DNA of 64,000 nucleotides from Escherichia coli. GTDB taxonomy: Bacteria; Pseudomonadota; Gammaproteobacteria; Enterobacterales; Enterobacteriaceae. Position numbers and translations under genes: made by a program. The DNA is taken from the NCBI GenBank assembly GCA_005400705.1, contig GCA_005400705.1_4079.1. One strand, 5' to 3'. Shown one piece after another: positions 18,088-57,742 of the stretch; position 1 is the stretch's first letter, and the number at the start of each line of letters is the position of its first letter. The notes below the pieces were generated by a model. That model had not been told where the DNA came from, ran no database searches, and saw nothing but the letters and a program-made list of their open reading frames with translations.

Positions 18088-18729
18088 ATGACTAAGCAAG
18101 AAATATTCAAAACTTTAATTGACATTTTGCGTCCATCAAAAACTCGTTGTGCGATGGAGTTTGATATTCCTTATGCTGAACGCGTAATCTTTCCACAAGT
18201 TAAAGCTGCTGGACTTACTTTGCTTGGAATGGGGATGTACTCTGTAGTAGTTGAACATAAAAACTATCCTGGGCGTGCATTTAAAGTAACCACTTCACGC
18301 TGGGATGGTTTTCGTGCTTATGCAATGTACTGCATTGAAAACGCAGGAACCAAGTTTCTTCCAGTGATCTACAGTGCAAACGAACAAGGAAACTTTGGAT
18401 GGTATGAGATGGACAAGTACTATCCTATAATTAAACAAAAAAATAATTATGATGACTTTGTTAGTACTAAAATTGGAGATTTATATTCTTATGCACATGC
18501 TGGTCAGTATGCTACTTCAGTGAATGATATGCGTGGAAATTCTGAAGAGATTGCTATTGCGACGGTCGCTGCTAACATCATGAAAGAGTTTCACGGGTGT
18601 TTTGTACCAGACATTCATTCCAGTAATGTCATGATGGATAAAGATGGCAATGTATTCATTACTGATCCTCTTTCGTGTGATGTACGTAGAGAAATACCAG
18701 TTACTGAAGAAGATCCAGTTTTTTATTGA
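18088..18729 (+). CDS. kinase-like (phosphotransferase-fold) protein
   Basis: 213 aa from ATG 18088 (RBS gagga); DIHSSNVMMDKDGNVFITDP resembles the APH/protein-kinase catalytic loop and metal-binding Asp. Confidence 0.45.
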   Translation: MTKQEIFKTLIDILRPSKTRCAMEFDIPYAERVIFPQVKAAGLTLLGMGMYSVVVEHKNYPGRAFKVTTSRWDGFRAYAMYCIENAGTKFLPVIYSANEQGNFGWYEMDKYYPIIKQKNNYDDFVSTKIGDLYSYAHAGQYATSVNDMRGNSEEIAIATVAANIMKEFHGCFVPDIHSSNVMMDKDGNVFITDPLSCDVRREIPVTEEDPVFY

Positions 18730-18791
18730 CAGAACTGATGTAATGAGGTATTCTTAATAAACCATTAAAAAGTGCGGTAAAGGATAAAATC

Positions 18792-19073
18792 ATGCGTTCA
18801 TTTGAAAACTTAATAGGTAAGAATCTTTTATCTGAAATTGATGCAGACGTTAAAGAATTATCCAAATCAAAAAGTTACATTCATTTGGATGAACTATTTG
18901 TTAAGTACGGTGAGATTGGTTTTAAGTCATTATTTGTTTTTACTATGAAAGTACATAGTTTAAAGTACTTCGATTTGAGTGCTAAAGATGGTGAACCGAA
19001 TCTATATTACATGTATTACCTTAAGAACAAAGATGAAGCTAATACATTACTCTCTGAATATATATTGGGGTAA
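18792..19073 (+). CDS. hypothetical protein
   Basis: 93 aa ORF. Confidence 0.5.
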   Translation: MRSFENLIGKNLLSEIDADVKELSKSKSYIHLDELFVKYGEIGFKSLFVFTMKVHSLKYFDLSAKDGEPNLYYMYYLKNKDEANTLLSEYILG

Positions 19074-19075
19074 AA

Positions 19076-19414
19076 ATGGAACAATATTTTGAATTAATAA
19101 ACAAAGTATCATTTTATGTAGTATCTTTGGTTTGGGTGTATTATATGTTTTGCTACATTATTGCATTCTTCCGATACACTACTTTATATGAACGTATCTA
19201 CTATGATGCCCCAATTTCATTCTTGATGTTTTGTGCATGTACGTGGGGAATATTAGAAGTACTGATATGTGGGTATAGTACTGATGAATTAAATCTGGTA
19301 TCGGTGTTGACTGGGTTTTCATTTGTTGTTATGATAGCTGCCGTTCCAGTATGGTTGTTCTTTGGACTAGTTCATCGCATTGATATATGGCGTTCTAATA
19401 TCCCTGAAAAGTAA
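19076..19414 (+). CDS. small multi-pass membrane protein (paralog family M)
   Basis: 112 aa, 3-4 hydrophobic helices, C-terminal RSNIPEK. Confidence 0.55.
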   Translation: MEQYFELINKVSFYVVSLVWVYYMFCYIIAFFRYTTLYERIYYDAPISFLMFCACTWGILEVLICGYSTDELNLVSVLTGFSFVVMIAAVPVWLFFGLVHRIDIWRSNIPEK

Positions 19415-19417
19415 GGA

Positions 19418-19765
19418 TTGGTAATGATTTATTACACTAACATGTTTGCCTATGCTGTTGCTTGCATTTACATTGTTTACTTCTTATTCGGTGGAGTACT
19501 GTGCTTCTTTAAGTACAAAACGTTGTTCAACCGAATGTACCCAAATCATCCAATTGTAGTTGTACTTTTGATTCTTTCAGTTTCTCAAATAATCGTTGAA
19601 ACTACAATGGGTATCAGTAGTGTACATTATAGTTTTGGTACTATAGTAATTATTACTATGCTTATTGCATACATTTTAGTACTTGGATATGGTATCTTTG
19701 GTAATATTGGTATGAAAATGTATCATCGAATTAAAACATTACGTGATAATCTACCGGAGCGTTGA
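19418..19765 (+). CDS. small multi-pass membrane protein (paralog family M)
   Basis: 115 aa, C-terminal RDNLPER. Confidence 0.55.
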   Translation: MVMIYYTNMFAYAVACIYIVYFLFGGVLCFFKYKTLFNRMYPNHPIVVVLLILSVSQIIVETTMGISSVHYSFGTIVIITMLIAYILVLGYGIFGNIGMKMYHRIKTLRDNLPER

Positions 19766-19766
19766 T

Positions 19767-20111
19767 ATGTATAATTTGAACCTAATCTCATATATTATAA
19801 CAACACTGTTTACATTCTATGCCTTTGTTGGTATAATCCTACTGTACTTTAAATTTTATAAAGTGTTTAACCGTTTCTATCCTTCAATGGAGAATGAGTT
19901 TTTCTTTGTGTTGTACGTATGTTACACATTCATGGCTACATGTTTCACTGTAGTCGATGGTGTCATCGGCATTAAAACTGCTGCACCAAATGGTAGTACG
20001 CTGGTTGCATTTATTCTTACCGGATTCCTTGCAACTTATATTGCCTTCATTGCAACATGGTCAGTGGTTGAATTTCTCTTGCGACTACGAAAGAATATGC
20101 CGAATCGATAG
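19767..20111 (+). CDS. small multi-pass membrane protein (paralog family M)
   Basis: 114 aa from ATG 19767, C-terminal RKNMPNR. Confidence 0.5.
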   Translation: MYNLNLISYIITTLFTFYAFVGIILLYFKFYKVFNRFYPSMENEFFFVLYVCYTFMATCFTVVDGVIGIKTAAPNGSTLVAFILTGFLATYIAFIATWSVVEFLLRLRKNMPNR

Positions 20112-20120
20112 GAGACATAT

Positions 20121-20375
20121 ATGTTTGCATTGCGTAACAAAAACACTAAAGAAATATTATGTTTAGATACCGTATGGGATTGTGCGGGATCAACTACAGT
20201 TCTTGAAGAAGGAACTGGATATTGCGTGTTTGTTGTACATGATAGGAATGAACTCGAATTATTACTTGCTGAGTTCAATGCTGGTGGTAATCCTAACAGT
20301 ACTGAATACCCTGAGATTATCAATCCAGCACCACCAGGCTCTTATGAAATTCTACAACTGTGGGAGTTGAAGTAA
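20121..20375 (+). CDS. hypothetical protein
   Basis: 84 aa ORF, RBS aggaga. Confidence 0.5.
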   Translation: MFALRNKNTKEILCLDTVWDCAGSTTVLEEGTGYCVFVVHDRNELELLLAEFNAGGNPNSTEYPEIINPAPPGSYEILQLWELK

Positions 20376-20755
20376 TGCGTCAAATGCACAAAGTAACCGA
20401 GCTAAACAAGCGTCTGGTTAAACAATCAATGTTCGAGGATAAAGAGTCTTATTATAACTTTAAACGTGCTGTAGAGGCTGCTATCCACATTCAGAAGCTT
20501 AAAGAACGTGGTTGTATTATTCTGGAAAATGGGTCGGAAGTTGTAACGGATGACTTTAGTGTAGCGTTTGATGTTTCACCTGACGGGACGCTATCAATGC
20601 CCCGCTTAGGAACTGGAAACATGACTGTTTGGGTTGGCTTCACTATGGGGAATGTACCTGGTACTGTGTACGTAGATGATGCGGAATTGAAAGACAGTTT
20701 CAAAAACTTATCTTATCTTGAACCACAATACGCACATGAAATGAATTTATTTTGA
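20375..20755 (+). CDS. hypothetical protein
   Basis: 126 aa from ATG overlapping upstream stop (TAATG). Confidence 0.5.
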   Translation: MRQMHKVTELNKRLVKQSMFEDKESYYNFKRAVEAAIHIQKLKERGCIILENGSEVVTDDFSVAFDVSPDGTLSMPRLGTGNMTVWVGFTMGNVPGTVYVDDAELKDSFKNLSYLEPQYAHEMNLF

Positions 20756-20756
20756 G

Positions 20757-20815
20757 TTGACAAACACATTCAGTACTGTATAATGCTTATCAAGGGGATG
20801 AACTTCTCATCCCTA
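20757..20815 (+). promoter_or_regulatory. promoter TTGACA-16-TATAAT plus 5' stem-loop
   Basis: ttgaca 20757-20762, tataat 20779-20784, stem gggatga-acttc-tcatccc. Confidence 0.55.
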
Positions 20816-20831
20816 CAATCGAGGAACTACC

Positions 20832-21386
20832 ATGATTACTTTTAAGAAAACTGCTAACCACATCCATGAAATCTACATTAACGGTCACAAAGCTGGCCTT
20901 CTTCGTTTACTCGCCCATCATCCTGATGTTACCGTATCTGATAATGAACCTAAAGATTGGCGTGTATTTTTCTTTGGAAAGTACAGTGATTTTCAAGTAT
21001 CAAACCTGAAGAACATTCGTTCAGTATGCACGTTAACTGAAATTAAAGAAAAGTTAGAAAAAGCATTGAAAACTAATCCAGATGGTGTTCTTCCACCTGA
21101 TAACTTTGTAGAGAAAGGTTATGCATTAGCTCATTTCAAAGATGGTACTATTCAATCTATCAGTACTGAATATGAATATCAATGGACTGAGTACTTCACT
21201 TATGGATCGCGTAATACATTGATGGCTTCACGTAGTAAATTGGAAGAAGTACTGACTCGTATGAATGAACGCGAACGTCAATTTTATGACAAACCAGAAA
21301 TGTGGAGTTCAACTTACATTGACCGTATTGACTATGTTATTATGACTCCAATCTTTGACACTGCTTACTATGATTCTTTGAAATAA
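20832..21386 (+). CDS. hypothetical protein
   Basis: 184 aa, RBS gaggaa. Confidence 0.6.
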   Translation: MITFKKTANHIHEIYINGHKAGLLRLLAHHPDVTVSDNEPKDWRVFFFGKYSDFQVSNLKNIRSVCTLTEIKEKLEKALKTNPDGVLPPDNFVEKGYALAHFKDGTIQSISTEYEYQWTEYFTYGSRNTLMASRSKLEEVLTRMNERERQFYDKPEMWSSTYIDRIDYVIMTPIFDTAYYDSLK

Positions 21387-21397
21387 GGATAACTTAT

Positions 21398-21574
21398 ATG
21401 AAACTACGTACTCGTAATCGACTGATGGATGCACTGTACCATGAACAGCTTTCACTGAATGAAGTGAAGCGACAGTTAATGTACACATATCTGTTACCCG
21501 CTCGCATTGCAAAACAACGTGCTAAAGAATTGCTGAAAGAAGCAATCGAGTACTGGGAATCTGATTCATACTAA
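21398..21574 (+). CDS. hypothetical small protein
   Basis: 58 aa ORF (below ORF-track cutoff), RBS aagga. Confidence 0.4.
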   Translation: MKLRTRNRLMDALYHEQLSLNEVKRQLMYTYLLPARIAKQRAKELLKEAIEYWESDSY

Positions 21575-21613
21575 TATTACGTGATATGTCACGTTAATTA
21601 AGTGAGGCGATAA

Positions 21614-21865
21614 ATGAAAATATTATTAGTTTTAATACTACTAATAGTTTTACCATTTACTTTAGTATCCCCTGGACTTGCATGGAATGTATTTGTGTAC
21701 TTAGTATGTACTATTGTAGTAAATGGTATCTTGTTCTTAGTTCTATTCATAAATGGAATAGGACACGGTGGAGGATGGACCAGTACTGCTGATATTGTAC
21801 ATAAAACCACTATGTCTTTATTTGTAGTGTGGAATTTATTCTGGACTTGGTTTGTGTTCTTCTAA
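21614..21865 (+). CDS. small membrane protein
   Basis: 83 aa, hydrophobic. Confidence 0.5.
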   Translation: MKILLVLILLIVLPFTLVSPGLAWNVFVYLVCTIVVNGILFLVLFINGIGHGGGWTSTADIVHKTTMSLFVVWNLFWTWFVFF

Positions 21866-21874
21866 TTAAAAAAT

Positions 21875-22246
21875 ATGAATATAGATTTGAAAGGTGCAAC
21901 CCGAACTGTTATCCTCATTGGGGAATACGCTATCAAGATTCCAACCTTTAAAAGTTGGAAGCTATTCTTAACAGGGATGATAGCTAACCTCAATGAACGT
22001 TCGTGGATGCAGTACTCCAAGCGTAGTGATACTGGTATCTGTCCTACTTTGTGGTCATCATGTACTGGACTAGTAACTGTACAGAAACGTTGTAAGCCAG
22101 TGCAACATAGGGGTTTATTTTGGGTGGAGTTGTGTGCTTTAGCATTGAATACAGAGTTAAGTACTGACTTCTTCTATTCAGATGCGAAGCCAGAAAACTT
22201 TGGGTATCTGGGTGGTAAGTTAGTTAAACTTGATTATGGAGATTAA
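21875..22246 (+). CDS. kinase-like small protein
   Basis: 123 aa; EYAIKIP (Lys motif), DAKPENFG (catalytic-loop-like), KLDYGD (DFG-like). Confidence 0.4.
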   Translation: MNIDLKGATRTVILIGEYAIKIPTFKSWKLFLTGMIANLNERSWMQYSKRSDTGICPTLWSSCTGLVTVQKRCKPVQHRGLFWVELCALALNTELSTDFFYSDAKPENFGYLGGKLVKLDYGD

Positions 22247-22247
22247 T

Positions 22248-22517
22248 ATGTACGCACTGTATAATAAAGAAAAGAAACGATTTGCTAAGGTTGAAATTTC
22301 GATTGATACATTTGATATGTTGGAGTACTGTATTGTAACTGACCTATCTGCTAACTTGTATTACGTTCATGATGACGTATCAGTACTGCAACGATTGCTT
22401 GAGAATTCCAAAAGTCAATGCCAGGACATCCATGATGGTTCATCTTATGAAACACCTGAGTGTCCCCACGGGCAACTCGATGGGTATGAGATTGTTAAGT
22501 TGGGAATTGTTGAGTAA
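22248..22517 (+). CDS. hypothetical protein
   Basis: 89 aa from ATG 22248 with RBS ggaga. Confidence 0.5.
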   Translation: MYALYNKEKKRFAKVEISIDTFDMLEYCIVTDLSANLYYVHDDVSVLQRLLENSKSQCQDIHDGSSYETPECPHGQLDGYEIVKLGIVE

Positions 22518-22523
22518 AAGGTA

Positions 22524-22552
22524 TTGACACCGTACTCATTTAACTGTATTAT
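22524..22552 (+). promoter_or_regulatory. sigma70-type promoter TTGACA-17-TATTAT
   Basis: ttgaca 22524-22529, tattat 22547-22552. Confidence 0.5.
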
Positions 22553-22582
22553 GTATGTACACCAACTAATGAGGAATCGGAA

Positions 22583-22942
22583 ATGGCATCTTTATCTGAA
22601 ATCACTGAACTGAATCCACTGGTAATTAGTACTGTTCAACGCACCAAGACGTTTTACTTCCGTCCTGCTGATGGATGGAAACGTGGAATGAATGGTGACT
22701 ATCGAGTACTGGAAGATTCGCTCATCGAGCGTATCAACTCTGAACTACAGAAGTATGAAGGTGTTAAAGTTGTCCGTTCAACTTCTCGTTATTTTGAGTA
22801 CTACATTGAGTCTTCAACTGTAAATGAAAACTCATCATTCTCGGTGGATAACACTGATATTCTTCGCAATGCAGTTGGTTTGCTATGCAACATTGCAGAA
22901 GAAATGGGATTAACTATCACCACAATGAGTGAGTTAGAATAG
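22583..22942 (+). CDS. hypothetical protein
   Basis: 119 aa, RBS gaggaa. Confidence 0.55.
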   Translation: MASLSEITELNPLVISTVQRTKTFYFRPADGWKRGMNGDYRVLEDSLIERINSELQKYEGVKVVRSTSRYFEYYIESSTVNENSSFSVDNTDILRNAVGLLCNIAEEMGLTITTMSELE

Positions 22943-22952
22943 AATAAAAAAA

Positions 22953-22984
22953 GGGTTGACTTAGGTCGGCCCTTTTGCTATTAT
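22953..22984 (+). terminator. fused terminator-promoter (GGGTTGAC-TTAG-GTCGGCCC, G-U wobbles)
   Basis: Hairpin 22953-22972, TTTT, tattat 22979-22984. Confidence 0.55.
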
Positions 22985-23012
22985 ATCTATATCGAAACGA
23001 AGGAGACAAACC

Positions 23013-23786
23013 ATGACCCGTCAAGAGAAAGCAATCCAAATCGAAAAAAACTTCAATAGCATGATGGCTGCACTGGAATGCCTTCTTGATACACAAGCTA
23101 ACTCTATCAACTCTCTGATCGTATCAGGTAAAGGTGGTGTTGGTAAAACTTATAACGTTGACCAACGGTTGCAGAAAGCTGATGATAACTTTGAAATCGA
23201 CTACAAGAAAATCAGTGGTAAAGTAACTACTTTGGGTCTGTACGAAGCACTGTATCGTTCACGTCATGCCGCATCAGTACTGTTACTTGATGACGTTGAT
23301 ATCTTCTCTGACGAGACTAATATTGATTTGCTTAAAGCTGTGTTGGATACGTCAGAGAAGCGTGTAGTTTCTTACGCGACTTCTGCTAAGTACCTGGAAC
23401 AGCAGGGTATCCCTAAGCAGTTTGAATTCCGTGGTAAAGTAATCTTTCTGACTAACAAAAACCTGTCACAGATTGCTAAAGGTAAAAGCAGCTTAGCACC
23501 ACACATCGATGCACTGATCACTCGTAGTATCTTTGTTGACCTGCAACTGTTCACCAACGAAGAAGTGATGATTCACATTGAGAACATCATGAACAAAACT
23601 AACATCCTTGAAAACAATGGTGTTAACAAAAATGGTTGTAAAGCAATCCTGAATTGGATGCTGAACAACGAAGAACGTTTGCGTAGTCCATCACTGCGTA
23701 TGCCAGTACTGATCGCTGGTTTGTATAATAAATTCCCATACGATTGGGAATCAATGGCAGAGAATATGTTCCTTGAGAAAATTTAA
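23013..23786 (+). CDS. P-loop NTPase (AAA-like ATPase)
   Basis: 257 aa; Walker A GKGGVGKT, Walker B VLLLDDVD. Confidence 0.6.
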   Translation: MTRQEKAIQIEKNFNSMMAALECLLDTQANSINSLIVSGKGGVGKTYNVDQRLQKADDNFEIDYKKISGKVTTLGLYEALYRSRHAASVLLLDDVDIFSDETNIDLLKAVLDTSEKRVVSYATSAKYLEQQGIPKQFEFRGKVIFLTNKNLSQIAKGKSSLAPHIDALITRSIFVDLQLFTNEEVMIHIENIMNKTNILENNGVNKNGCKAILNWMLNNEERLRSPSLRMPVLIAGLYNKFPYDWESMAENMFLEKI

Positions 23787-23853
23787 TTACATGTATTGAC
23801 AGTACTACACTATGGTAGTACTATAACTTAATATTCACCACCGGAGATACGAT

Positions 23854-24192
23854 ATGCTTGAGTTTTTTAATTCAGATACAATGCTTAGTATTACTTTGAT
23901 TTATCTGTTTGGTTTTTTCTTTTATCATGCACTAGTTGTAGTACTATGGTATTTTAAAAAGAAAATCGTTTTCAAACTGTATCCTGATGGAAACATTTCA
24001 CTACTTCTTTTCACTATTATCCAAGGTATGTTTGCAATTGTTGGTCTTATCGCACACTTAATTTATTGTGCTAATCCACAGTTGAACTCAATATCACAAT
24101 ATATTGTATTCCTTGGATTACTAATTTGGGTGCTGATATACTTGTTTAATCTCATCATTAATGGAAGAGCAAAAATTCGTGGGGACTTCTAA
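23854..24192 (+). CDS. small multi-pass membrane protein (family M)
   Basis: 112 aa, hydrophobic. Confidence 0.5.
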   Translation: MLEFFNSDTMLSITLIYLFGFFFYHALVVVLWYFKKKIVFKLYPDGNISLLLFTIIQGMFAIVGLIAHLIYCANPQLNSISQYIVFLGLLIWVLIYLFNLIINGRAKIRGDF

Positions 24193-24539
24193 TGTTTGAA
24201 TCTTATCTTGAGTTTTTAAAGAGTAGTTCTGTTGCACATTCAATTGCAGGGATTATTCTAACAGGTTATGTAACATTTTGGGTAGTTATGTTTCTAGGAT
24301 GGTATTTTAAACGACAATTCTATAAGCGTAATGGTGAAGATTTTATGAATTCTTTCATTAATCAATCGTTGTTTGCATCAACATTGATAGCATGTATTGT
24401 AGCAACACTCACAGGAAAGGTACTGCCAGCATTCTCCGCAGTTTACGGTACATTGGGTATGATATGTGTAGTTTTTTACTTGACCATTAAAATTTGTTGT
24501 GTTATGATTGAACTTCGAAATAAGATACCGGAGGAATGA
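24192..24539 (+). CDS. small multi-pass membrane protein (family M)
   Basis: 115 aa, C-terminal LRNKIPEE. Confidence 0.5.
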   Translation: MFESYLEFLKSSSVAHSIAGIILTGYVTFWVVMFLGWYFKRQFYKRNGEDFMNSFINQSLFASTLIACIVATLTGKVLPAFSAVYGTLGMICVVFYLTIKICCVMIELRNKIPEE

Positions 24540-48020: not shown

Positions 48021-48143
48021 GTATTACATCAAGACGGGGAGCACTAAGTAGACCGCCAGTAAGTCGAACGAAAAACTGGACACGTCGAGAAAACTTTGAT
48101 ACACTAATAAACGTAAACTAAACTTTAATTGAGGATTTATAAA

Positions 48144-48626
48144 ATGGCTAATGTAAAATCATTCATCAAAGCACTGGTAGCAAATGAAACTAACGTCGCG
48201 GCAGAGATCCTGGCTGATCTGGATAACGATACCATGAAAGCGGTACGCAATAATTTTAACATCGCTTATAGTACTGCGAAAGAACTACAAGCAAATAAAG
48301 CGGCAGAAATTGAAGCGGCAAAGGCGGCCCGTGAAGCAGAACTACAAGCAACAATTGAAAGTATCCAGGCGGCAGTAGTTGGATTGGATCTGGAAGTAGT
48401 TACAGAGATGGCACAAAAAGCCCTGGCGGTTAAGTATGGGGAAGATAAGCCGGAATCTAAGCCTAAAAAATGGATTCAAAAACGTGTAGCGGTAGTACTG
48501 GACAACGGGGAAGAATATCTGATTCCGGTGCGTGGTAACTGCATTGCGGTAGTACTGGATGCGATTAACTCCAGTGGTATGACTCGCGAGGAATGGATCG
48601 AAGCTCATCGCAAAGTTGAAGCATAA
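48144..48626 (+). CDS. hypothetical protein
   Basis: 160 aa from ATG 48144 (RBS gagga); alternative start 48129. Confidence 0.55.
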   Translation: MANVKSFIKALVANETNVAAEILADLDNDTMKAVRNNFNIAYSTAKELQANKAAEIEAAKAAREAELQATIESIQAAVVGLDLEVVTEMAQKALAVKYGEDKPESKPKKWIQKRVAVVLDNGEEYLIPVRGNCIAVVLDAINSSGMTREEWIEAHRKVEA

Positions 48627-50963: not shown

Positions 50964-50981
50964 AATAACAGGAGAAACAAA

Positions 50982-51364: not shown

Positions 51365-51371
51365 AAAAAGT

Positions 51372-51488: not shown

Positions 51489-51554
51489 AAAGTACTTGCA
51501 AACTATCTCAATTGGCGTATAATGTTTTACATCGCAAGGGGAAACGGTTTCCCC
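51489..51554 (+). promoter_or_regulatory. PeSL-like cassette
   Basis: aaagtacttgcaaactatctcaattggcgtataat, palindromic stem ggggaaac-g-gtttcccc. Confidence 0.6.
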
Positions 51555-51574
51555 TGGTAATAAGGAAACGAATC

Positions 51575-51916
51575 ATGACTATCTCAATTGCTCAATCTAA
51601 CTTTGAAAACGAAATCATCGCCCAGGCACTGCGTTTAAATGATGGTCGGGCCGAAATTAATTACGGTTTCAATTCAGGCGGTTGCGAAAAATATCAGTAC
51701 TTTGTAACGGCTGATGGCGGTGTCCTGGGGATCAATACAGTTATTGTAAACATTCAGAAAATTAATTTCAATGATCCAGAAGATAGCCAGTTTTACATCA
51801 CGGGCGTGAACGTGAACTATGAGGATGATTATCTAACTGATGATCACACTGGCGAGAAGTTAGAAAGTGCATACGGTGAAGATGATTATCAGTCCGGTCC
51901 AGAAGATTTTGAATAA
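51575..51916 (+). CDS. hypothetical acidic protein
   Basis: 113 aa from ATG 51575, RBS aagga. Confidence 0.55.
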   Translation: MTISIAQSNFENEIIAQALRLNDGRAEINYGFNSGGCEKYQYFVTADGGVLGINTVIVNIQKINFNDPEDSQFYITGVNVNYEDDYLTDDHTGEKLESAYGEDDYQSGPEDFE

Positions 51917-51930
51917 TATTAAAAAATAGT

Positions 51931-51990
51931 TTGACAATAGATTATAGTACTGTATAATAAGTTACATCAAGGGGAGAAATGATTCTCCCC
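51931..51990 (+). promoter_or_regulatory. PeSL-like cassette (TTGACA-16-TATAAT)
   Basis: ttgaca 51931-51936, tataat 51953-51958, hairpin ggggagaaatgattctcccc 51971-51990. Confidence 0.6.
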
Positions 51991-52010
51991 ACTAACAAAG
52001 AGAAAACAAA

Positions 52011-52223
52011 ATGGCTAATATCTGCACTGTACTGAAAAATGCAAAACAAGTTTTATTTTCTGATCATGAAAATTTCAACAAGGATATTACGGGCGTTCGG
52101 AATATCAAAGATGTAAAAAGTGTTATGGGTATCTATTGCAATATGAAACGTGTTGGTACGTTCGGCGACAAAGTACTATACCAGGCAGGGGATTATAACT
52201 TTACATTAACCATTATCAATTAA
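52011..52223 (+). CDS. hypothetical protein
   Basis: 70 aa. Confidence 0.55.
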   Translation: MANICTVLKNAKQVLFSDHENFNKDITGVRNIKDVKSVMGIYCNMKRVGTFGDKVLYQAGDYNFTLTIIN

Positions 52224-52241
52224 AATATATTACCAGTACTA

Positions 52242-52270
52242 TTAACAATGATTGATAGTACTGGCATAAT
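52242..52270 (+). promoter_or_regulatory. promoter TTAACA-17-CATAAT (AGTACTGG class)
   Basis: gatagtactggcataat. Confidence 0.45.
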
Positions 52271-52314
52271 AACTTTTATCAACAGTAGTTAACTTAACAA
52301 AAGAGAGAAACAAA

Positions 52315-52458
52315 ATGATCGCACTAGATTCATTCATCGACGCAGTACTGGCAAAAACTGGCGAGGATCTGACCGCAGAACAATACGCGATGATCGAACA
52401 ATGTCAGCAAAACGGTAAATCGGTGAAAGATACTGTTAAGATTATCCGCAAGATGTAA
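52315..52458 (+). CDS. small protein
   Basis: 47 aa (below cutoff), RBS agagag. Confidence 0.4.
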   Translation: MIALDSFIDAVLAKTGEDLTAEQYAMIEQCQQNGKSVKDTVKIIRKM

Positions 52459-52563
52459 GATTATAGCCCACTGGTTAACGCTGGTGGGCTATAATTCATT
52501 ACCCTATACAATGCCAGTACTCAACCGTTTATCTCGTTAGAATGCGTTACAGGACGTTTACCA

Positions 52564-52761
52564 ATGATTAGCATGAAATCAGTACAAAAACAAATAGAAA
52601 CATTATCAAAAATTAAACGTAAACAGTACTCGTTAGAATATACAATCAATGGTAACTATCATCTAATGAAAGAGAATAATTTTATCGTCATTGATGAATC
52701 ATTGCAAGTTATTAGTATAGTACTGAAAGCATTAATCAATGACAGAAAAAAATTAAAATAA
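52564..52761 (+). CDS. hypothetical protein
   Basis: 65 aa. Confidence 0.45.
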   Translation: MISMKSVQKQIETLSKIKRKQYSLEYTINGNYHLMKENNFIVIDESLQVISIVLKALINDRKKLK

Positions 52762-52765
52762 TCTA

Positions 52766-52794
52766 TTGACAATATCCTCCAGTACTGGCATAAT
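52766..52794 (+). promoter_or_regulatory. promoter TTGACA-17-CATAAT (AGTACTGG class)
   Basis: ttgaca 52766-52771, agtactggcataat. Confidence 0.5.
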
Positions 52795-52856
52795 ACTTAC
52801 ATCAAGACGAGAACGTCACCAACCCATAGGGTGCACAAATGTAACTATATAATATC

Positions 52857-52929
52857 GATCAATAAATGATCAAAAAAGTACTGGATCAATTTAGCATAAG
52901 GCGTATAATTCTGATCAATTCTTGATCAA
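52857..52929. repeat. cluster of five (T)GATCAA repeats (GATC sites)
   Basis: gatcaa at 52857, 52868, 52884, 52913, 52924, flanking a tataat at 52903-52908. Confidence 0.5.
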
Positions 52930-53090
52930 AGGCAATATACGCAGTTGAATTTATATAGACAGTACAAAGGCGTTACTATCCGTGGTAATGCTGGTGGATA
53001 TGTAGTATCATATGGTTTGAATAAGATAAACACTAGTAGTATTATTGTAGCATTACAGTACTATAGTATTTTTATAATGAGGTTAAAATA

Positions 53091-53348
53091 ATGGCAGTAG
53101 GATACGCGAAAGACGGGGCCGAACAAGACGAGATTCATGCAGTGATTCAGGCCGCCGTTAACCACGCTAGAAAGCAAATTAACGCACAAAGAGAATCACT
53201 GGTACATTGCCTCGACTGCGGCGATAAAATTCCTGAGAATCGACGCCAGGCCGTTATAGGGTGCATGTATTGTATTACTTGCCAGGAGGATCATGATAGT
53301 ACTTTTAAAAGAGATCCGCGTAATTGTTGGCATAGATCTATGAGATAA
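53091..53348 (+). CDS. TraR/DksA-family C4 zinc-finger protein
   Basis: 85 aa; CLDCGDKIPENRRQAVIGCMYCITCQ gives CxxC-x17-CxxC as in TraR/DksA. Confidence 0.65.
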   Translation: MAVGYAKDGAEQDEIHAVIQAAVNHARKQINAQRESLVHCLDCGDKIPENRRQAVIGCMYCITCQEDHDSTFKRDPRNCWHRSMR

Positions 53349-53354
53349 AAAGTA

Positions 53355-53383
53355 ATTGACAGTACTGAAAGATAGTGTATAAT
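53355..53383 (+). promoter_or_regulatory. sigma70-type promoter TTGACA-17-TATAAT
   Basis: ttgaca 53355-53360, tataat 53378-53383. Confidence 0.55.
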
Positions 53384-53412
53384 GTTTTATATCTTAACTG
53401 AGGATAGAAATC

Positions 53413-53769
53413 ATGGGAATACAACATATCACGCGTACTACTGACAATGGCGAGATCACTGGTTATCAAGTACAGGGCAAAGTAGCACAATTGCAGTACT
53501 GGTTTGTTAAACGTGGAATCATTGCACCGGATCTTGATTATGACCGTGTAGCGTTTATTGATTCTCTTTATGTTGATCCTGATAGTCGGGGCAATGGTGA
53601 AGGTAACGAATTAATGAATGCCTTTATCGATGCCGCCGATGATTCAGATTGTATCATCTTAGAATGCGATACGGGAGAAGATAACGCCTTTAATCTTAAA
53701 GAATGGTACGAAGGTTTCGGATTCGAGGTATTGATAGATAGTGAATATCCTATCATGATTTTATCATAG
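53413..53769 (+). CDS. hypothetical protein, possibly GNAT-like acetyltransferase
   Basis: 118 aa; IDSLYVDPDSRGNGEGNELMNAFIDAA loosely resembles GNAT motif A. Confidence 0.5.
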   Translation: MGIQHITRTTDNGEITGYQVQGKVAQLQYWFVKRGIIAPDLDYDRVAFIDSLYVDPDSRGNGEGNELMNAFIDAADDSDCIILECDTGEDNAFNLKEWYEGFGFEVLIDSEYPIMILS

Positions 53770-53830
53770 TACTTGCATTTAGTTTTCAGTACTGTTATAG
53801 TACTTGCATCAAGGGGAAACATCTTCCCCT
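53768..53830 (+). promoter_or_regulatory. PeSL-like cassette (degenerate -10)
   Basis: agtacttgcatttagttttcagtactgttatag, hairpin aggggaa-acatc-ttcccct. Confidence 0.45.
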
Positions 53831-53847
53831 ACTAAGAGGAAATAAAA

Positions 53848-54036
53848 ATGGAAAACTTATCAAGTATTTTAGTACAAGATGATTTCGGTAATCCTGGAAG
53901 TGCTATCATTGTTCGGGGTAATAAAGCAACGTTTGTTATTGCTGGTGGACCCGTACAGCGTAGCATTAAAAATAATGCTGTTACCATTAATAATGTACGC
54001 TATCGCTTAGATAAAGAATTGATTCATAAACTGTAA
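53848..54036 (+). CDS. hypothetical protein
   Basis: 62 aa, RBS agagga. Confidence 0.5.
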   Translation: MENLSSILVQDDFGNPGSAIIVRGNKATFVIAGGPVQRSIKNNAVTINNVRYRLDKELIHKL

Positions 54037-54044
54037 AAAAGTAC

Positions 54045-54104
54045 TGGACAATAGATTATAGTACTGTATAATAAGTTACATGAAGGGGAGAAATGATTCT
54101 CCCC
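54045..54104 (+). promoter_or_regulatory. PeSL-like cassette
   Basis: tggaca-16-tataat (54067-54072), hairpin ggggagaaatgattctcccc. Confidence 0.55.
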
Positions 54105-54122
54105 AGTACTGAGGAAAGAAAA

Positions 54123-54335
54123 ATGCAAGGTCAACTAATCGTTCGTAAATGGTCTGATACTAACGCTAAACCGTGGGATGTACAATACATCGGCCCCAAT
54201 GGTGAATCCAGATATCAACCAGGTGTAACGCATAGTACTGAGCAATTCGCCGCCGCTCATCGTGAACGTCTGTTACAATCAATGCAGCAAGGTTCCGGTG
54301 AAAAATTCATTCAGGATCATTGGCTGAAAGATTAA
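54123..54335 (+). CDS. hypothetical protein
   Basis: 70 aa from ATG 54123, RBS gagga. Confidence 0.55.
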   Translation: MQGQLIVRKWSDTNAKPWDVQYIGPNGESRYQPGVTHSTEQFAAAHRERLLQSMQQGSGEKFIQDHWLKD

Positions 54336-54336
54336 A

Positions 54337-54400
54337 AAGTACTTGCACAGTACTGAATAAAGTGTATAATGTTTTATATCGAGAGGGGAATAGTTCCCCT
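54337..54400 (+). promoter_or_regulatory. PeSL-like cassette
   Basis: aaagtacttgcacagtactgaataaagtgtataat, hairpin gaggggaa-tag-ttcccctc. Confidence 0.6.
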
Positions 54401-54421
54401 CCTAACAAAAAGGAAAGTATA

Positions 54422-54595
54422 ATGATCCAAGTAGAATTATCAGTACTGAAAGATCTATTTTATCGGTTAGGTACTAATGGCGAGTATCCTAAAAGTGATA
54501 CCGCAAAACTTTTTGTATCACTCGACTTATGGCAACGCGAACAATTAGTAATGTCGTGGCGTAAAGGTAAAGCAGATCGCGAGGTGAAAGCATGA
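54422..54595 (+). CDS. small protein
   Basis: 57 aa from ATG 54422, RBS aaggaaag. Confidence 0.45.
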   Translation: MIQVELSVLKDLFYRLGTNGEYPKSDTAKLFVSLDLWQREQLVMSWRKGKADREVKA

Positions 54596-54741
54596 AAGAA
54601 TTCTTATTTGAAGTAGTGTTTCAAGGTGTCGGTAATAACCAACTGATTCGATCAAGTGGTTATAATGTTAACCAGGCATGGAATAACATTAAACAAATGT
54701 ACCCTAACGCTATCACCTATCGCAACCCGAAAGAAGTTTAA
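54592..54741 (+). CDS. small protein
   Basis: 49 aa, ATGA overlap. Confidence 0.35.
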   Translation: MKEFLFEVVFQGVGNNQLIRSSGYNVNQAWNNIKQMYPNAITYRNPKEV

Positions 54742-54755
54742 AAATAATTGAAAAA

Positions 54756-54789
54756 GGGATTGACTCCGGTCAGTCCCTTTGCTATTATA
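54756..54789 (+). terminator. fused terminator-promoter (GGGATTGAC-TCCG-GTCAGTCCC)
   Basis: Hairpin 54756-54777, TTT, tattat 54784-54789. Confidence 0.6.
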
Positions 54790-54873
54790 TACGCATAGAA
54801 ACAAATCAGCCCACCGGGTGCATAAATGTATCTATTGTTTGCTGGTGGCTAGTACTGAAAACTATTTTTAAAA

Positions 54874-54906
54874 AGTACTTGCATTGTACTTAGAATCAAG
54901 TATAAT
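54874..54906 (+). promoter_or_regulatory. PeSL-type promoter driving the structured element
   Basis: aaagtacttgcattgtacttagaatcaagtataat. Confidence 0.55.
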
Positions 54907-54990
54907 GTTTTACATCAGGACGGGGAACGAAATAAGTAACTTCCCGTTAAGTAGCCCAGGAGTAAGGCACACGAAAAACTCCCCTGATAA
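54907..54990 (+). ncRNA. candidate structured small RNA, copy B
   Basis: Sequence identical to 45066-45150. Confidence 0.35.
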
Positions 54991-54996
54991 AATAGT

Positions 54997-55024
54997 TTGA
55001 CAATAGAAAGTAAACGAGTATAAT
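54997..55024 (+). promoter_or_regulatory. sigma70-type promoter TTGACA-16-TATAAT
   Basis: ttgaca 54997-55002, tataat 55019-55024. Confidence 0.55.
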
Positions 55025-55057
55025 ACTTACATCAACCACTGATAAGGAAACATTAAA

Positions 55058-55333
55058 ATGCGGATTCTACTGACAGCTAACGAAATCGAACAAGTACTGA
55101 CTACTAACCTGGAACAATGGAAACGTGATGCAGATATCCAGGCGGTTCAATGGCTTAACGATAAGTTAACGCCGGATGACTTAAGCAAGATTGTAGATCC
55201 TCAATTCTACGAAGATATCCACGACACCGCGTTAAGCGTCGAGGATGTACTTGATAAGCACTACATTGATACTGATTTACAGGTTTACGGTCGTAAAAAC
55301 TTTATCACTATCCACGACATTTACAATAATTAA
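55058..55333 (+). CDS. hypothetical acidic protein
   Basis: 91 aa, RBS aaggaaa. Confidence 0.55.
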   Translation: MRILLTANEIEQVLTTNLEQWKRDADIQAVQWLNDKLTPDDLSKIVDPQFYEDIHDTALSVEDVLDKHYIDTDLQVYGRKNFITIHDIYNN

Positions 55334-55336
55334 GTA

Positions 55337-55398
55337 TTGACAAAGTATCTTAGTACTGTATAATAGTTTACATCAAGTGAGGGGAAACGGTTCCCCTC
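55337..55398 (+). promoter_or_regulatory. PeSL-like cassette
   Basis: ttgaca-16-tataat (55359-55364), hairpin gaggggaaacggttcccctc. Confidence 0.6.
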
Positions 55399-55419
55399 CT
55401 AACAAAGAGAGAAATAAAA

Positions 55420-55743
55420 ATGGCTATGATCCTTACCCAGAAAGTAGAACTGAAAATTGTAACCTCCTTTGACATTAAAGTTAATCGCTGGACTGATCGG
55501 AACGGCAATACTTACCACTCTTGCTACGTGTCTGCATTGATTGGTGATCGTTGGGAAGACCTGGGACACGAAACTTTTACATACGGTTACGGTACGCAAG
55601 GCGAATACACGGGCTTGGAGATCATTAAAGAAACCGTTATAGGTTTCAACCCGAAAGAAAAAGTTATTCACCGCATCGAAAAAGAGATTAACAAAGAAAT
55701 AACAGTTCGCTACTACGATGTAAAACGTAAGAAAGACATGTAA
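55420..55743 (+). CDS. hypothetical protein (paralog of 49451 product)
   Basis: 107 aa, RBS agagag. Confidence 0.55.
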   Translation: MAMILTQKVELKIVTSFDIKVNRWTDRNGNTYHSCYVSALIGDRWEDLGHETFTYGYGTQGEYTGLEIIKETVIGFNPKEKVIHRIEKEINKEITVRYYDVKRKKDM

Positions 55744-55758
55744 TAGAATCCATTTAAA

Positions 55759-55794
55759 GTACTATTTGACATTACACAGATAGTACTTTATAAT
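55759..55794 (+). promoter_or_regulatory. promoter with palindrome AGTACTAT...ATAGTACT
   Basis: ttgaca 55766-55771 inside the palindrome, tataat 55789-55794. Confidence 0.5.
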
Positions 55795-55838
55795 AGACTC
55801 TAGCTTGTAGTACTAACTTAACTAATAGGATGTATACC

Positions 55839-56234
55839 ATGATTACTAAATTCTACGCTACCCGTGAAGCTGCCCGTATTGTTGCACGCGAGGAAGGAGC
55901 AGCATTTAAAGACATGGGCAAAGATGCACCGAAAGGCCAACGCTGGGCCGTACAGTTCAAAGAGATCTCTGATATTGTGAATTCACCGGAGCCAGTACTG
56001 ACAGCAGCAGAACAGAAGAAAGCTGATGAACTGTCAGCAGTTCTTAACGCTCAAGATGACTTTATCGCGGGTTCTGATATTAAAGTTTCCGTAAATTCGA
56101 ATGCATGGACTCACGCGGATCATCTGGCTAACTTGAAGCGTCCAAGTGTACTGATTCGCAACCAACGAGAGATCCGCCACGACCGCAAGGGAAACAGTGT
56201 TACTGTATTCAGTAAACGCCGCCAGGTTATCTAA
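55839..56234 (+). CDS. hypothetical protein (paralog of 44207 product)
   Basis: 131 aa from ATG 55839, RBS agga. Confidence 0.55.
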   Translation: MITKFYATREAARIVAREEGAAFKDMGKDAPKGQRWAVQFKEISDIVNSPEPVLTAAEQKKADELSAVLNAQDDFIAGSDIKVSVNSNAWTHADHLANLKRPSVLIRNQREIRHDRKGNSVTVFSKRRQVI

Positions 56235-56255
56235 TAACTTGCAGTACTAACAACA

Positions 56256-56290
56256 CGGCGGGTTCAGTTCCCGCCTTTTTTTTATAGGAT
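56256..56290 (+). terminator. intrinsic terminator
   Basis: ggcggg-ttcagtt-cccgcc then T9. Confidence 0.7.
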
Positions 56291-56298
56291 AAACTAAA

Positions 56299-56553
56299 AT
56301 GATGAAGGTACAACTATCTAAAGATAATATCTTGCGGGTACACTATAAAGCACCACAGAGAATCATCACAAAGGCCGTACAGCTTGCTAATGAGTTTATT
56401 AATGGTAGTCTATTACCCAGGAAGTTAAGCAACGGGAAACTACGTGTTATCGATGTAGACACTAACAATAGAATAGTAATTGAGAGTACTGGAAAAATTA
56501 ATCTATATGAACACCAACAATACAATAAAAAAATAAAACTAATATCACGTTGA
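56299..56553 (+). CDS. hypothetical protein
   Basis: 84 aa. Confidence 0.5.
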   Translation: MMKVQLSKDNILRVHYKAPQRIITKAVQLANEFINGSLLPRKLSNGKLRVIDVDTNNRIVIESTGKINLYEHQQYNKKIKLISR

Positions 56554-56578
56554 CAGTACTCAATTGTTTTAGTATTAT
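56550..56578 (+). promoter_or_regulatory. promoter TTGACA-17-TATTAT
   Basis: Near-identical to the 56826 promoter and leader. Confidence 0.5.
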
Positions 56579-56606
56579 GTACACATACCAACACGGGAGA
56601 AACAAA

Positions 56607-56825
56607 ATGAAATTATCTAAAATCGAAAAGAAAACTATTGATGAAGCAGTTAAGCACGGTTATACCTTTCGTAATGATTCACATTTTACCAATTTTCAAC
56701 AAGGGTATCGTACTATTAAAAAACTAATTGACAAAGGTTTATTAGTTGAAGTCAATAACGGCAATGGCATTGAGTATCAACCAACACAGGACGCATTTTA
56801 TTTTAAGAAATATAATATTATCTAA
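56607..56825 (+). CDS. hypothetical protein
   Basis: 72 aa from ATG 56607, RBS gggaga. Confidence 0.5.
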   Translation: MKLSKIEKKTIDEAVKHGYTFRNDSHFTNFQQGYRTIKKLIDKGLLVEVNNGNGIEYQPTQDAFYFKKYNII

Positions 56826-56854
56826 TTGACAGTACTCAAATGTTTTAGTACTAT
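56826..56854 (+). promoter_or_regulatory. promoter TTGACA-17-TACTAT
   Basis: Duplicate of the 56550 cassette. Confidence 0.5.
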
Positions 56855-56883
56855 ATGTACATACCAACACGGGGAAAAACAAA

Positions 56884-57126
56884 ATGATTACTTTAGAAAA
56901 ACGTATCAAAGAAACTACATCGCTGGTGGAACTGTTAACAGTACTGAAATGTAAAACAACACCATTCAGCACGCCGGACTTTATTAATATGGTTGATGTT
57001 AATGGTCGCTATCGCATCACGGTCGAACAAGGAGCGGCGAAAGTATTCAGTACTAAAAACACCAAGGAAGTGATCCACGCCGTTAATGTTAAAAAAGTAG
57101 TTGCCATTGATAGTAAAGTACTGTAA
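56884..57126 (+). CDS. hypothetical protein
   Basis: 80 aa. Confidence 0.5.
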   Translation: MITLEKRIKETTSLVELLTVLKCKTTPFSTPDFINMVDVNGRYRITVEQGAAKVFSTKNTKEVIHAVNVKKVVAIDSKVL

Positions 57127-57157
57127 TATAGTTTCATTAACTCAAGGAGAACATGCA

Positions 57158-57742
57158 ATGCGTAATTATACTAAATTCATCCGTACACTGTCAGAAATGG
57201 AAACCAACAAAGAGATCCTTTCAGCTTGTCGGTTAGCTGGCCTGGAGATCATCGGTGCTGGTTCTTCCCGTATAGTATTCGCTTTAAATGATCGGTTAGT
57301 GATTAAGGTCGCGAATTGTGATGCGGGTGTAGAACAAAATGAAACTGAATGTAAGGTATGGAATTTTTTAGACTATGACCGCCCTCAGTTGAAACAGTAC
57401 TTTGCAAAGGTGCATATGCATTTATGCGATCCTGATAATATGTTTATCGTTATGGATCGGTTGAGTACTGCAAGCAAAGGCAGTGTGAAGCACGTTAACG
57501 CGTGCAATGAATTAAAGTACAATATTAAACGTAATGCCATTGAACGCCAGCACCGCTTTGCTGATGCACTACAACACGTTGATGATACCTTATCAACACT
57601 AACTATAAGAGATATCAGAAAACAGAATATCGGCCAGGATCGCAACGGCTTGATTAAAGTACTTGATTACGGTTTAACCCGCAATATCTGGAATCAGTAC
57701 TATAAAAAGCGTGATGTAAAAGCCGTAACTATAACACGATAA
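57158..57742 (+). CDS. protein kinase-like protein
   Basis: 194 aa from ATG 57158 (RBS aaggaga); Gly-rich IGAGSSRIVF, Lys in VIKVA, RDIRKQNIG (HRD-like), VLDYGL (DFG-like). Confidence 0.5.
   Translation: MRNYTKFIRTLSEMETNKEILSACRLAGLEIIGAGSSRIVFALNDRLVIKVANCDAGVEQNETECKVWNFLDYDRPQLKQYFAKVHMHLCDPDNMFIVMDRLSTASKGSVKHVNACNELKYNIKRNAIERQHRFADALQHVDDTLSTLTIRDIRKQNIGQDRNGLIKVLDYGLTRNIWNQYYKKRDVKAVTITR

Follow-up and report, generated by a model that had tools for sequence, protein, structure and literature searches.

In a stretch of 64,000 nucleotides from an Escherichia coli assembly (GCA_005400705.1, contig GCA_005400705.1_4079.1; hereafter the window), three genes probably encode small protein-kinase-like enzymes that each retain a complete core for ATP binding and phosphotransfer. 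We refer to them as K1 (18088-18729; 213 amino acids, aa), K2 (21875-22246; 123 aa) and K3 (57158-57742; 194 aa). Their reality as genes, their homology, their fold and the conservation of their catalytic residues are directly supported by the evidence presented here; that they are catalytically active (most securely so for K1), act on proteins, are made early and counter host defences is our proposal. An initial annotation, made from the sequence alone, had placed three kinase-fold proteins in the window, and all three open reading frames (ORFs) do lie where it put them, with every motif it quoted present in the translations.

18088-18729, plus strand: K1, a 213-aa kinase domain of the T7K type (like gp0.7 of phage T7) without a shut-off (SO) domain
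21875-22246, plus strand: K2, a 123-aa mini-kinase made up of an amino-terminal lobe (N-lobe), αE, catalytic loop, β7-β8 and DYG motif, followed by the stop codon
57158-57742, plus strand: K3, a mini-kinase of 194 aa that carries extra helical sequence at its N-terminus and an insertion ahead of αE

Judged from its sequence, the window is Asteriusvirus DNA, that of a 121Q/PBECO4-like jumbo coliphage of Escherichia: the region from 17.5 to 23 kb is ~97% identical to the Asteriusvirus jumbo phages 121Q, PBECO4, phAPEC6, G17, Sharanji and slurp01, and K3 is 100% identical to its counterpart in phAPEC6. All three ORFs sit on the plus strand amid numerous small, densely packed genes, and they are real, conserved genes. 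K1 matches phrog_15752 ("protein kinase; inhibitor of host transcription...") with an E-value of 1.5e-90, and K2 and K3 match phrog_4301 at 2.5e-43 and 7.9e-42, far beyond what chance would produce. The trio is conserved throughout the genus, with K2 and K3 orthologues of at least 90% identity in 35 phage records each. Orthologues include gp205 of 121Q (annotated as a protein kinase) and WNN14432.1 of Sharanji for K1 (orthology confirmed here), gp215 of 121Q and WNN14422.1 of Sharanji for K2, and gp500c of phAPEC6, gp308 of 121Q and WNN14351.1 of Sharanji for K3. In comparisons with 121Q and Sharanji, synonymous codon changes exceed non-synonymous ones, at 8:3 and 11:4 in K1 and at 16:4 in K3.

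Pairwise BLASTP comparisons among K1, K2 and K3 were insignificant, and profile methods were therefore needed. None of the three proteins has an above-threshold match in Pfam or NCBIfam; T7 gp0.7, used as a positive control, likewise lacks a Pfam match in the library copy used. All of them nevertheless possess a Gly-rich loop, the β3 Lys, a catalytic D-x4-N loop and an Asp equivalent to that of DFG, with the αC Glu present as well in K2 and K3, and these motif residues are invariant or nearly so in relatives down to 25-40% identity. The proteins end only 3-24 residues past the DFG-equivalent Asp, and the activation segment and the αF-αI helices of the carboxy-terminal lobe (C-lobe) are therefore absent from all three.

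By profile comparison, K1 falls within the kinase-domain family of T7K without sharing the full T7K architecture, as it has no counterpart of the SO domain (T7K residues 243-359). T7K is an experimentally proven, hyper-promiscuous and motif-independent Ser/Thr/Tyr kinase that inactivates defence systems, and its DNA-binding SO domain focuses it on nucleic-acid-binding proteins (PMC13645617). A profile of 20 K1-family sequences aligned with T7 gp0.7 over 169 columns spanning gp0.7 residues 61-230 (hhalign 98.5%, E 3e-15), with no alignment beyond residue 230. Homologues of K1 carry PF27024, and tblastn with K1 retrieved 778 phage records, nearly all of them T7-like "serine-threonine kinase" genes at 26-30% identity and down to an E-value of 1e-14. 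The likeness to T7K (gp0.7) and its homologues (JSS1_004, for example, and the G17/Munch clade) extends to the GxG loop, the β3 Lys, a D-x-H-x-x-N catalytic loop and a D-P-x motif in place of DFG; G47, G49, K66, D175, H177, N180, D193 and P194 are invariant in the 20 relatives.

18223-18252, plus strand: Gly-rich loop of K1, LGMGMYSVVV (aa 46-55), with G47 and G49 invariant
18277-18288, plus strand: β3 motif of K1, AFKV (aa 64-67), with K66 invariant
18610-18627, plus strand: catalytic loop of K1, DIHSSN (aa 175-180; DMHSGN in T7K), with D175, H177 and N180 invariant
18664-18675, plus strand: DPLS of K1 (aa 193-196), the equivalent of the T7K DPV motif that substitutes for DFG, plus a Ser at the position of T7K Ser216

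The G47-M-G49 segment of K1 aligns with G74-N-G76 of T7K, in which the G76F mutant is catalytically dead (PMC13645617). S196 aligns with the autoinhibitory Ser216 of T7K, a position occupied by Gly or Ala in most jumbophage relatives. In both proteins the kinase core stops about 20-27 aa beyond the DP motif: K1 ends 20 aa past it, and the kinase domain of T7K (residues 1-242) ends 27 aa past DPV (PMC13645617). The two differ in that K1 lacks the C-terminal DNA-binding domain and reads DPL where T7K reads DPV. The Val of this motif is less conserved in jumbophage homologues of T7K, and a jumbophage clade (G17, Munch) of T7K homologues without the SO domain has been reported (Nature 2026; PMC13645617).

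K2 and K3, on the strength of profile matches, are both members of a single phage family, PHROG 4301, which is catalogued as being of "unknown function". A 73-sequence profile of mini-kinases aligned with the K3 family at 96.4% (hhalign, E 1e-9), and a merged K2/K3 profile recovered both proteins in scans. The homologues collected for K3 numbered 12, down to 40% identity, and those for K2 numbered 15, all of 118-127 aa. Both proteins display the family signature of G-x-[ST]-R-x-V, K, G-x3-N-x2-E, D-x4-N-[FYW]-G and, near the C-terminus, [LI]-D-Y-G, which supplies the core residues G7, K21, E41, D103, N108 and D120 in K2 and G33/G35, K50, E64, D152, N157 and D170 in K3. K2 is the widespread form of about 120 aa; K3 is the longer form of the RaK2 group, distinguished by its extra N-terminal helical extension and an insert of ~25 aa.

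The family is large, with at least 2,100 sequence clusters. An HMMER scan of 1.84 billion cluster representatives (clusters at 50% identity) with the merged profile returned 2,101 proteins at E≤1e-3, 710 of them at ≤1e-10, most being 110-130 aa long. Across 73 diverse mini-kinases sampled from this space (mean column identity 25%), the residues G7, R10, K21, E41 and D120 are conserved in every sequence, the catalytic Asp in 64 and the catalytic Asn in 63, and in 50 the chain ends exactly 3 aa past the DxG Asp. A tblastn search placed K2-like genes in 118 phage records, mostly as "hypothetical" and twice as "serine/threonine kinase"; they are carried, among others, by T4-like Dhakavirus, by Pseudomonas and Xanthomonas phages of ~58 kb, by Aeromonas phages and by a number of jumbo phages. 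None of the 73 mini-kinases has a Pkinase match, no Pfam model was found for the family, and we found no paper on a phage mini-kinase family in a literature whose coverage was incomplete. A sub-clade of nine of the 73 replaces the catalytic Asp with Glu in concert with a change of Asn to Ser (E-x-K-x-[DN]-S-F-G), a pattern that suggests altered chemistry or lost activity in part of the family.

It is in K2 that the novelty lies. This kinase-like core stands for a large unannotated phage family that was overlooked by the initial annotation; its orthologue is "hypothetical" in every Asteriusvirus record examined and is absent from the text of the paper on Sharanji (PMC11895373). The gene starts 9 nt past the stop codon of a gene for an 83-aa membrane protein, and the next gene begins just after its own stop. 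Its motifs are as follows.

21890-21910, plus strand: G-loop of K2, KGATRTV (aa 6-12), with G7 and R10 invariant and V12 present in 72 of the 73 mini-kinases
21929-21943, plus strand: β3 motif of K2, AIKIP (aa 19-23), with K21 invariant
21974-21997, plus strand: αC signature of K2, G-x3-N-x2-E, common to K3, with E41 invariant
22181-22204, plus strand: catalytic loop of K2, DAKPENFG (aa 103-110), containing D103, K105 and N108
22232-22243, plus strand: DYG-D at the C-terminus of K2 (aa 120-123), with the DFG-equivalent Asp invariant and three residues from the end of the chain

Searches of PDB sequences with the K2 family profile gave no match, the 73-sequence profile found only TTK, weakly (E 0.17), and K2 has no Pfam Pkinase match. 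These searches being uninformative, structure prediction was required. The AlphaFold2 model of K2 (predicted local distance difference test score, pLDDT, 89.8; predicted template modelling score, pTM, 0.79) runs through β1-β3, αC, β4-β5, an αE-like helix, the catalytic loop, β7-β8 and DYG, and ends there. Foldseek searches of the PDB with this model matched nearly only kinase folds at a probability of ~1.0, among them Lpg2603 (6vve, the top match), TTK/MPS1 and RIOK2, the last giving the best TM-scores among the PDB matches (0.63-0.66, with a query-based TM-score, TMq, of up to 0.66). We considered whether K2 might be a truncated pseudogene of a K3-like gene and rejected this, as the length of ~120 aa and the stop after DYG are kept in thousands of clusters.

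For K3, the evidence from sequence and structure runs in parallel. Genes of its type are restricted to jumbo phages of the RaK2 group, where some are annotated as protein kinases; kinase labels are already attached to K3 orthologues in several records and in UniProt, and the related jumbo phage CBB has two K3-like proteins.

57251-57277, plus strand: G-loop of K3, IGAGSSRIV (aa 32-40), with G33, G35, R38 and V40 invariant
57299-57310, plus strand: β3 motif of K3, VIKV (aa 48-51), with K50 invariant
57326-57349, plus strand: αC signature of K3, GVEQNETE, with G57, N61 and E64 invariant
57611-57634, plus strand: catalytic loop of K3, DIRKQNIG (aa 152-159), with D152 invariant and N157 nearly so
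57665-57673, plus strand: DYG of K3 (aa 170-172), with D170 and G172 invariant and 24 residues following the Asp

The K3 family profile matched MKK4/MKK7 in the PDB (E 2e-4), aligned across the catalytic loop and DFG. The AlphaFold2 model (pLDDT 84.7, pTM 0.81) matched almost exclusively kinase-fold structures at a probability of ~1.0, including the aminoglycoside phosphotransferase (APH) APH(2''), MEK1, Lpg2603, NleH2 and RIOK2. In the models of K2 and K3 alike, the elements of a bilobal kinase are present in the predicted secondary structure (an N-lobe sheet with αC, then αE, catalytic loop and β7-8), and the 50 best Foldseek matches of each are essentially all kinases, at probabilities of 0.97-1.0. 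A kinase-like fold in a minimal scaffold, as first suggested from the motifs, is thus borne out for K1 by homology to T7K and for K2 and K3 by structure prediction, the check that had been proposed, together with their conserved catalytic residues.

The three genes had been described as divergent copies. Three kinase-like genes are indeed present; three copies of one gene are not, as by profile comparison the trio is drawn from two families, the T7K-type K1 and the PHROG 4301 pair K2 and K3, and does not form a set of three paralogues. The view that such a triple set is unusual also holds only in part. It is partly new, on account of K2; published work and annotations already cover K1 and K3, and the set is fixed across the genus. 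The Sharanji paper lists the orthologues of K1 and K3 as kinases and calls WNN14351.1 "another protein kinase... function unknown" (PMC11895373).

Whether the two families share a deeper origin is a separate question, and several observations suggest, short of proof, a single phage superfamily of kinases without a C-lobe that joins the K3 and T7K types. In BFVD, a collection of viral structures, T7-like kinases (Pantoea SK1, Yersinia fPS-53, Pectobacterium Q19 and A0A7L7SMK1) are among the closest neighbours of K3 once its orthologues are set aside, at E-values of 1e-6 to 1e-5 and TMq of 0.52-0.57, and these outscore any PDB kinase, the two libraries being similar in size; A0A7L7SMK1 is named as a T7K homologue in the T7K paper (PMC13645617). 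With an enriched K3 profile, the link to the T7K family plus T7K itself reached 78.8% (hhalign, E 1.6e-5, 158 collinear columns), the enrichment having been done post hoc with single domains cut from metagenomic proteins that carry two to four K3-like domains in tandem. The first profiles of the K3 and T7K families gave only 4%, and comparison of the K2 and T7K family profiles showed no relation (0.6% and 0.4%). T7K and K3 are therefore best described as structural neighbours with a weak profile link, and between T7K and K2 there is no detectable sequence relation. The tandem proteins themselves are P0081 (923 aa), P0104 (969 aa), P0186 (782 aa) and P0194 (468 aa), and several of their domains have altered catalytic loops. 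Domain 1 of P0104 combines a K3-like N-lobe with a T7K-like catalytic half (D-F-H-A-S-N ... I-D-P-G).

What might such proteins do? We infer that K1 and K3 are active kinases, and K2 probably so, engaged in early protein phosphorylation of low specificity. Transcription by the host RNA polymerase would begin early from σ70-like promoters belonging to K1 and K3; Mg-ATP would be held by the N-lobe, with its five strands, on one side and by the catalytic loop/DxG on the other; and the γ-phosphate would be passed to Ser or Thr, possibly also to Tyr, in proteins of the host and perhaps of the phage. Lacking the substrate platform of a C-lobe, the enzymes would show little sequence specificity, as does T7K, and the outcome would be host takeover, disarmed defence proteins or both. 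The kinase domain of T7K has the same truncated layout and is extremely active (PMC13645617).

A number of considerations weigh against this picture. The support for activity in the trio and its close orthologues is computational. The chief uncertainty is whether a 123-aa core without a C-lobe can fold stably and act alone, as it is the missing lobe that normally contributes the hydrophobic spines and forms the site for the substrate, and we know of no kinase of 123 aa, without residues past DxG, that is active by itself. The AlphaFold2 models of K2 and K3 rest on an alignment of 26 sequences, and their Foldseek matches to the PDB have moderate E-values (~1e-4) and TM-scores of 0.4-0.66. The Pfam Pkinase match of K3 is below threshold (E 0.002; 17.9 bits against a gathering cut-off of 31.7). 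In K2, synonymous and non-synonymous changes are about equal, at 5:6 and 4:4 relative to 121Q and Sharanji, with 8-11 codons differing. Finally, promiscuity on the scale of T7 is disfavoured: K1 has no DNA-targeting domain, and the depletion of Ser/Thr/Tyr reported for early proteins of T7K-carrying podophages was not seen, the fraction being 0.18 in small-gene regions and 0.17 in structural regions (rough gene calls, with classes assigned by genome region).

The first alternative is that K2, K3 or both phosphorylate small molecules, as aminoglycoside, choline and methylthioribose (MTR) kinases do, acting on a metabolite, a nucleotide, an antibiotic or a defence signal. The best PDB match of K3 is APH(2'')-IIa (E 1.8e-4), an MTR kinase is also matched, the absence of a protein-substrate platform would suit a small substrate held between the lobes, and K3 has its Lys at D+3, as opposed to D+2 in Ser/Thr kinases. 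The APH alignments, however, superpose at a root-mean-square deviation (rmsd) of 13-18 Å (13 Å for APH(2''), despite its kinase-like fold and the top Foldseek E-value for K3), whereas protein kinases superpose at 4-6 Å. The catalytic motif of APH and choline kinases is H-x-D-x4-N, with a His two residues before the Asp, and that His is missing from all three proteins (V-P-D in K1, Y-S-D in K2, I-R-D in K3). No sequence remains after the DxG region that could form the C-terminal helical substrate subdomain of APH, the D-A-K-P-E-N loop of K2 has the form seen in Ser/Thr protein kinases, and the viral proteins closest in structure are T7-like protein kinases. We therefore consider a small-molecule substrate unlikely, and the aminoglycoside-phosphotransferase half of the fold originally proposed is disfavoured for the same reasons, namely the missing His and C-terminal subdomain and the D-x-K-P-E-N loop.

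Alternatively, K2, and possibly K3, may not work autonomously, being either a pseudokinase or decoy that binds nucleotides, or half an enzyme, one that obtains its C-lobe or substrate site from a partner (another copy of itself, a host protein or a phage protein). The end of K2 three residues past the DxG Asp, before any activation segment or αF, is in keeping with such a protein. The longer C-termini of some relatives (Kc263, 267 aa; P0131, 313 aa) and the tandems of two to four domains hint that extra mass can be useful, and the nine of 73 relatives with Asp changed to Glu and Asn to Ser fit as well. Against this stand the (near-)invariant ATP/Mg-binding and catalytic residues at a mean identity of 25%, which are hard to explain without catalysis, and the high activity of T7K, which is also without a C-lobe. 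A conserved partner gene that could supply a C-lobe was not found either: the neighbours of K2-like genes are wholly different in four unrelated phages (JS10, Kc263, ZC01 and 2L372D), and no conserved partner of K2 is thus evident. Dependence on a partner, or a role without catalysis, accordingly strikes us as improbable. The longer protein of Kosakonia phage Kc263 (L011 1441-2244) is K2-like in its N-terminal half and annotated 'serine/threonine-protein kinase PknA'; its additional C-terminal ~145 aa have no Pfam or PDB sequence match.

It is very unlikely that the fold has been turned from phosphotransfer to a different reaction, of which the AMPylation by SelO and the glutamylation by SidJ are examples. 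Among pathogens there are several atypical proteins with a kinase fold that do so, and a fold search is blind to chemistry. The canonical Lys-Glu, D-x4-N and DxG arrangement is kept here, however, enzymes of the SelO and SidJ types have altered or extra active-site motifs, and the family of K1 is proven to phosphorylate. That the motifs are fortuitous and the proteins not kinase-like at all, as the insignificant BLASTP scores and the lack of above-threshold Pfam and NCBIfam matches might have indicated, is effectively refuted by the convergence of profile, structure and conservation evidence.

Active, C-lobe-less protein kinases thus remain our preferred interpretation. A bolder version, which we offer tentatively and consider less likely than not, holds that the ~120-aa proteins of the K2 type are autonomous, active kinases forming one superfamily with the K3 and T7K types, and that jumbo phages deploy them in threes, early in infection, against host and defence proteins.

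Comparison with established kinases helps to place K2 and K3, which are kinase-like cores that fall short of complete eukaryotic protein kinase domains. Relative to the eukaryotic-like Ser/Thr kinases (PF00069; MKK4/7, TTK/MPS1, PknB), they have the core motifs in the same order, the D-x-K-P-E-N of K2 recalls HRDLKPEN, and the hidden Markov model (HMM) and Foldseek matches cover the N-lobe, catalytic loop and DFG; they remain below the gathering threshold and lack the His-Arg of HRD, the activation loop, APE and αF-αI. A second group consists of effector kinases, small or atypical kinase folds used by a parasite on its host (NleH1/2, HopBF1, Legionella Lpg2603). Lpg2603 (6vve) heads the PDB matches of K2 and is a top match of K3, and NleH2 (4lrk, 162 aa) compares with K3 at a target-based TM-score (TMt) of 0.45. 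Sequence identity to these effectors is just 11-14%, and K2 ends at DYG after 123 aa, whereas the effectors keep their C-lobe helices at about 160-280 aa and act in eukaryotic cells. The atypical kinases RIO and Bud32 resemble K2 in being compact and in lacking a classical activation loop; no sequence similarity to them was detected, and they retain helices of the C-lobe and measure at least 220 aa.

The regions upstream of K1 and K3 bear on when these proteins would be made.

18025-18059, plus strand: putative early promoter of K1, a terminator-like hairpin containing a -35 element TTGACT, then a TG-TATGAT -10 box (spacing 18)
57101-57129, plus strand: putative σ70-type promoter of K3, TTGCCA-17-TAATAT, read from the sequence
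57144-57149, plus strand: Shine-Dalgarno sequence of K3, AAGGAG, ahead of the ATG at 57158
12172, 15414, 15597, 16940, 18025, 22951 and 51369, plus strand: copies of the hairpin GGTTGACTTCGGTCAGCC, ~21 nt each, that at 18025 lying directly upstream of K1
55337-55377 and 58374-58414; 56529-56607 and 56805-56883; 57866-57938, 58913-58985 and 59252-59293: repeated intergenic families near K3

The ATG of K1 at 18088 is preceded by a Shine-Dalgarno sequence, AGAGGA, and an upstream in-frame ATG at 18055 sits within the -10 box; for K3, the upstream alternative start, a TTG at 57101, is itself the -35 element. Because these longer ORF starts fall inside promoter elements, the starts at 18088 and 57158 are right, and the start codons chosen in the initial annotation were the correct ones. 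K2, in the same run of small plus-strand genes, has no promoter of its own. The hairpin GGTTGACTTCGGTCAGCC, which has TTGACT inside it and a T-run and -10 box behind it, is present in seven copies in the window where 0.01 would be expected. These copies look like composite terminator/early-promoter cassettes of the kind termed PeSLs (promoter early stem-loops), which have been described for T4-like phages (PMC2839356, PMC4122927). Around K3, the intergenic repeats contain near-consensus σ70 promoters (TTGACA-17-TATAAT, for example) ahead of many small genes, and in related genomes a 2-kb stretch of them matches up to 10 places per record. Early timing is weakened by the finding that promoter-like sites, taken as a class, are no more frequent in the K1-K2 region than in shuffled sequence (25 against 26.1 expected); it therefore rests on individual strong sites. 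No literature was found on expression or proteomics of the kinase genes in Asteriusvirus.

T7K was recently found to disable many bacterial defence systems through mass phosphorylation, which prompts the questions of how common kinases are among phages and what such activity minimally requires. Here, three kinase cores without a C-lobe are maintained in a single jumbo phage lineage. If they are active, far more phages than at present would be recognized as kinase carriers and the kinase fold would have a new minimum size, the K2 type being the smallest kinase architecture known to us; such compact enzymes might also find use in biotechnology and in probing anti-defence mechanisms. If they are inactive ATP binders, they would constitute a new class of phage pseudokinase. 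In either case, hundreds of phage genomes contain "hypothetical protein" entries whose annotation could be improved.

Profile HMM scans of all window ORFs and of phAPEC6 from 27 to 352 kb (~325 kb) did not find a fourth copy of the kinases; these used the K1, K2 and K3 family profiles alone, which an unrelated kinase family would escape. Weak matches at 48129-48623 of the window and at 299179-299538 of phAPEC6 were dismissed, having none of the motifs, and a search with PADLOC gave weak PD-T4-6 matches only, for K3. Outside the window, the phAPEC6 genome (MK817115.1) has two annotated Ser/Thr protein phosphatases, gp356c (265306-266097) and gp362c (269669-270427), which could counterbalance the three kinases. 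The same genome has at ~289-315 kb (gp404c-gp460c) a run of ~50 consecutive hypothetical genes on one strand, of ~110-200 aa each, that is possibly a large paralogous array.

Two further features of the window lie close to K2. At 22517-22583 it is without denV (endonuclease V / pyrimidine-dimer glycosylase) and the small gene adjoining it, which in 121Q lie between gp216 and gp219; Sharanji and phAPEC6 carry denV here too, and the difference amounts to an indel of roughly 600-850 bp. Between K1 and K2, three tandem genes for proteins of 112-122 aa (19076-19414, 19418-19765 and 19743-20111) appear, from a comparison of their translations by eye, to encode paralogous multi-pass membrane proteins with similar ...N[IL/M]P[EN][KR] tails.

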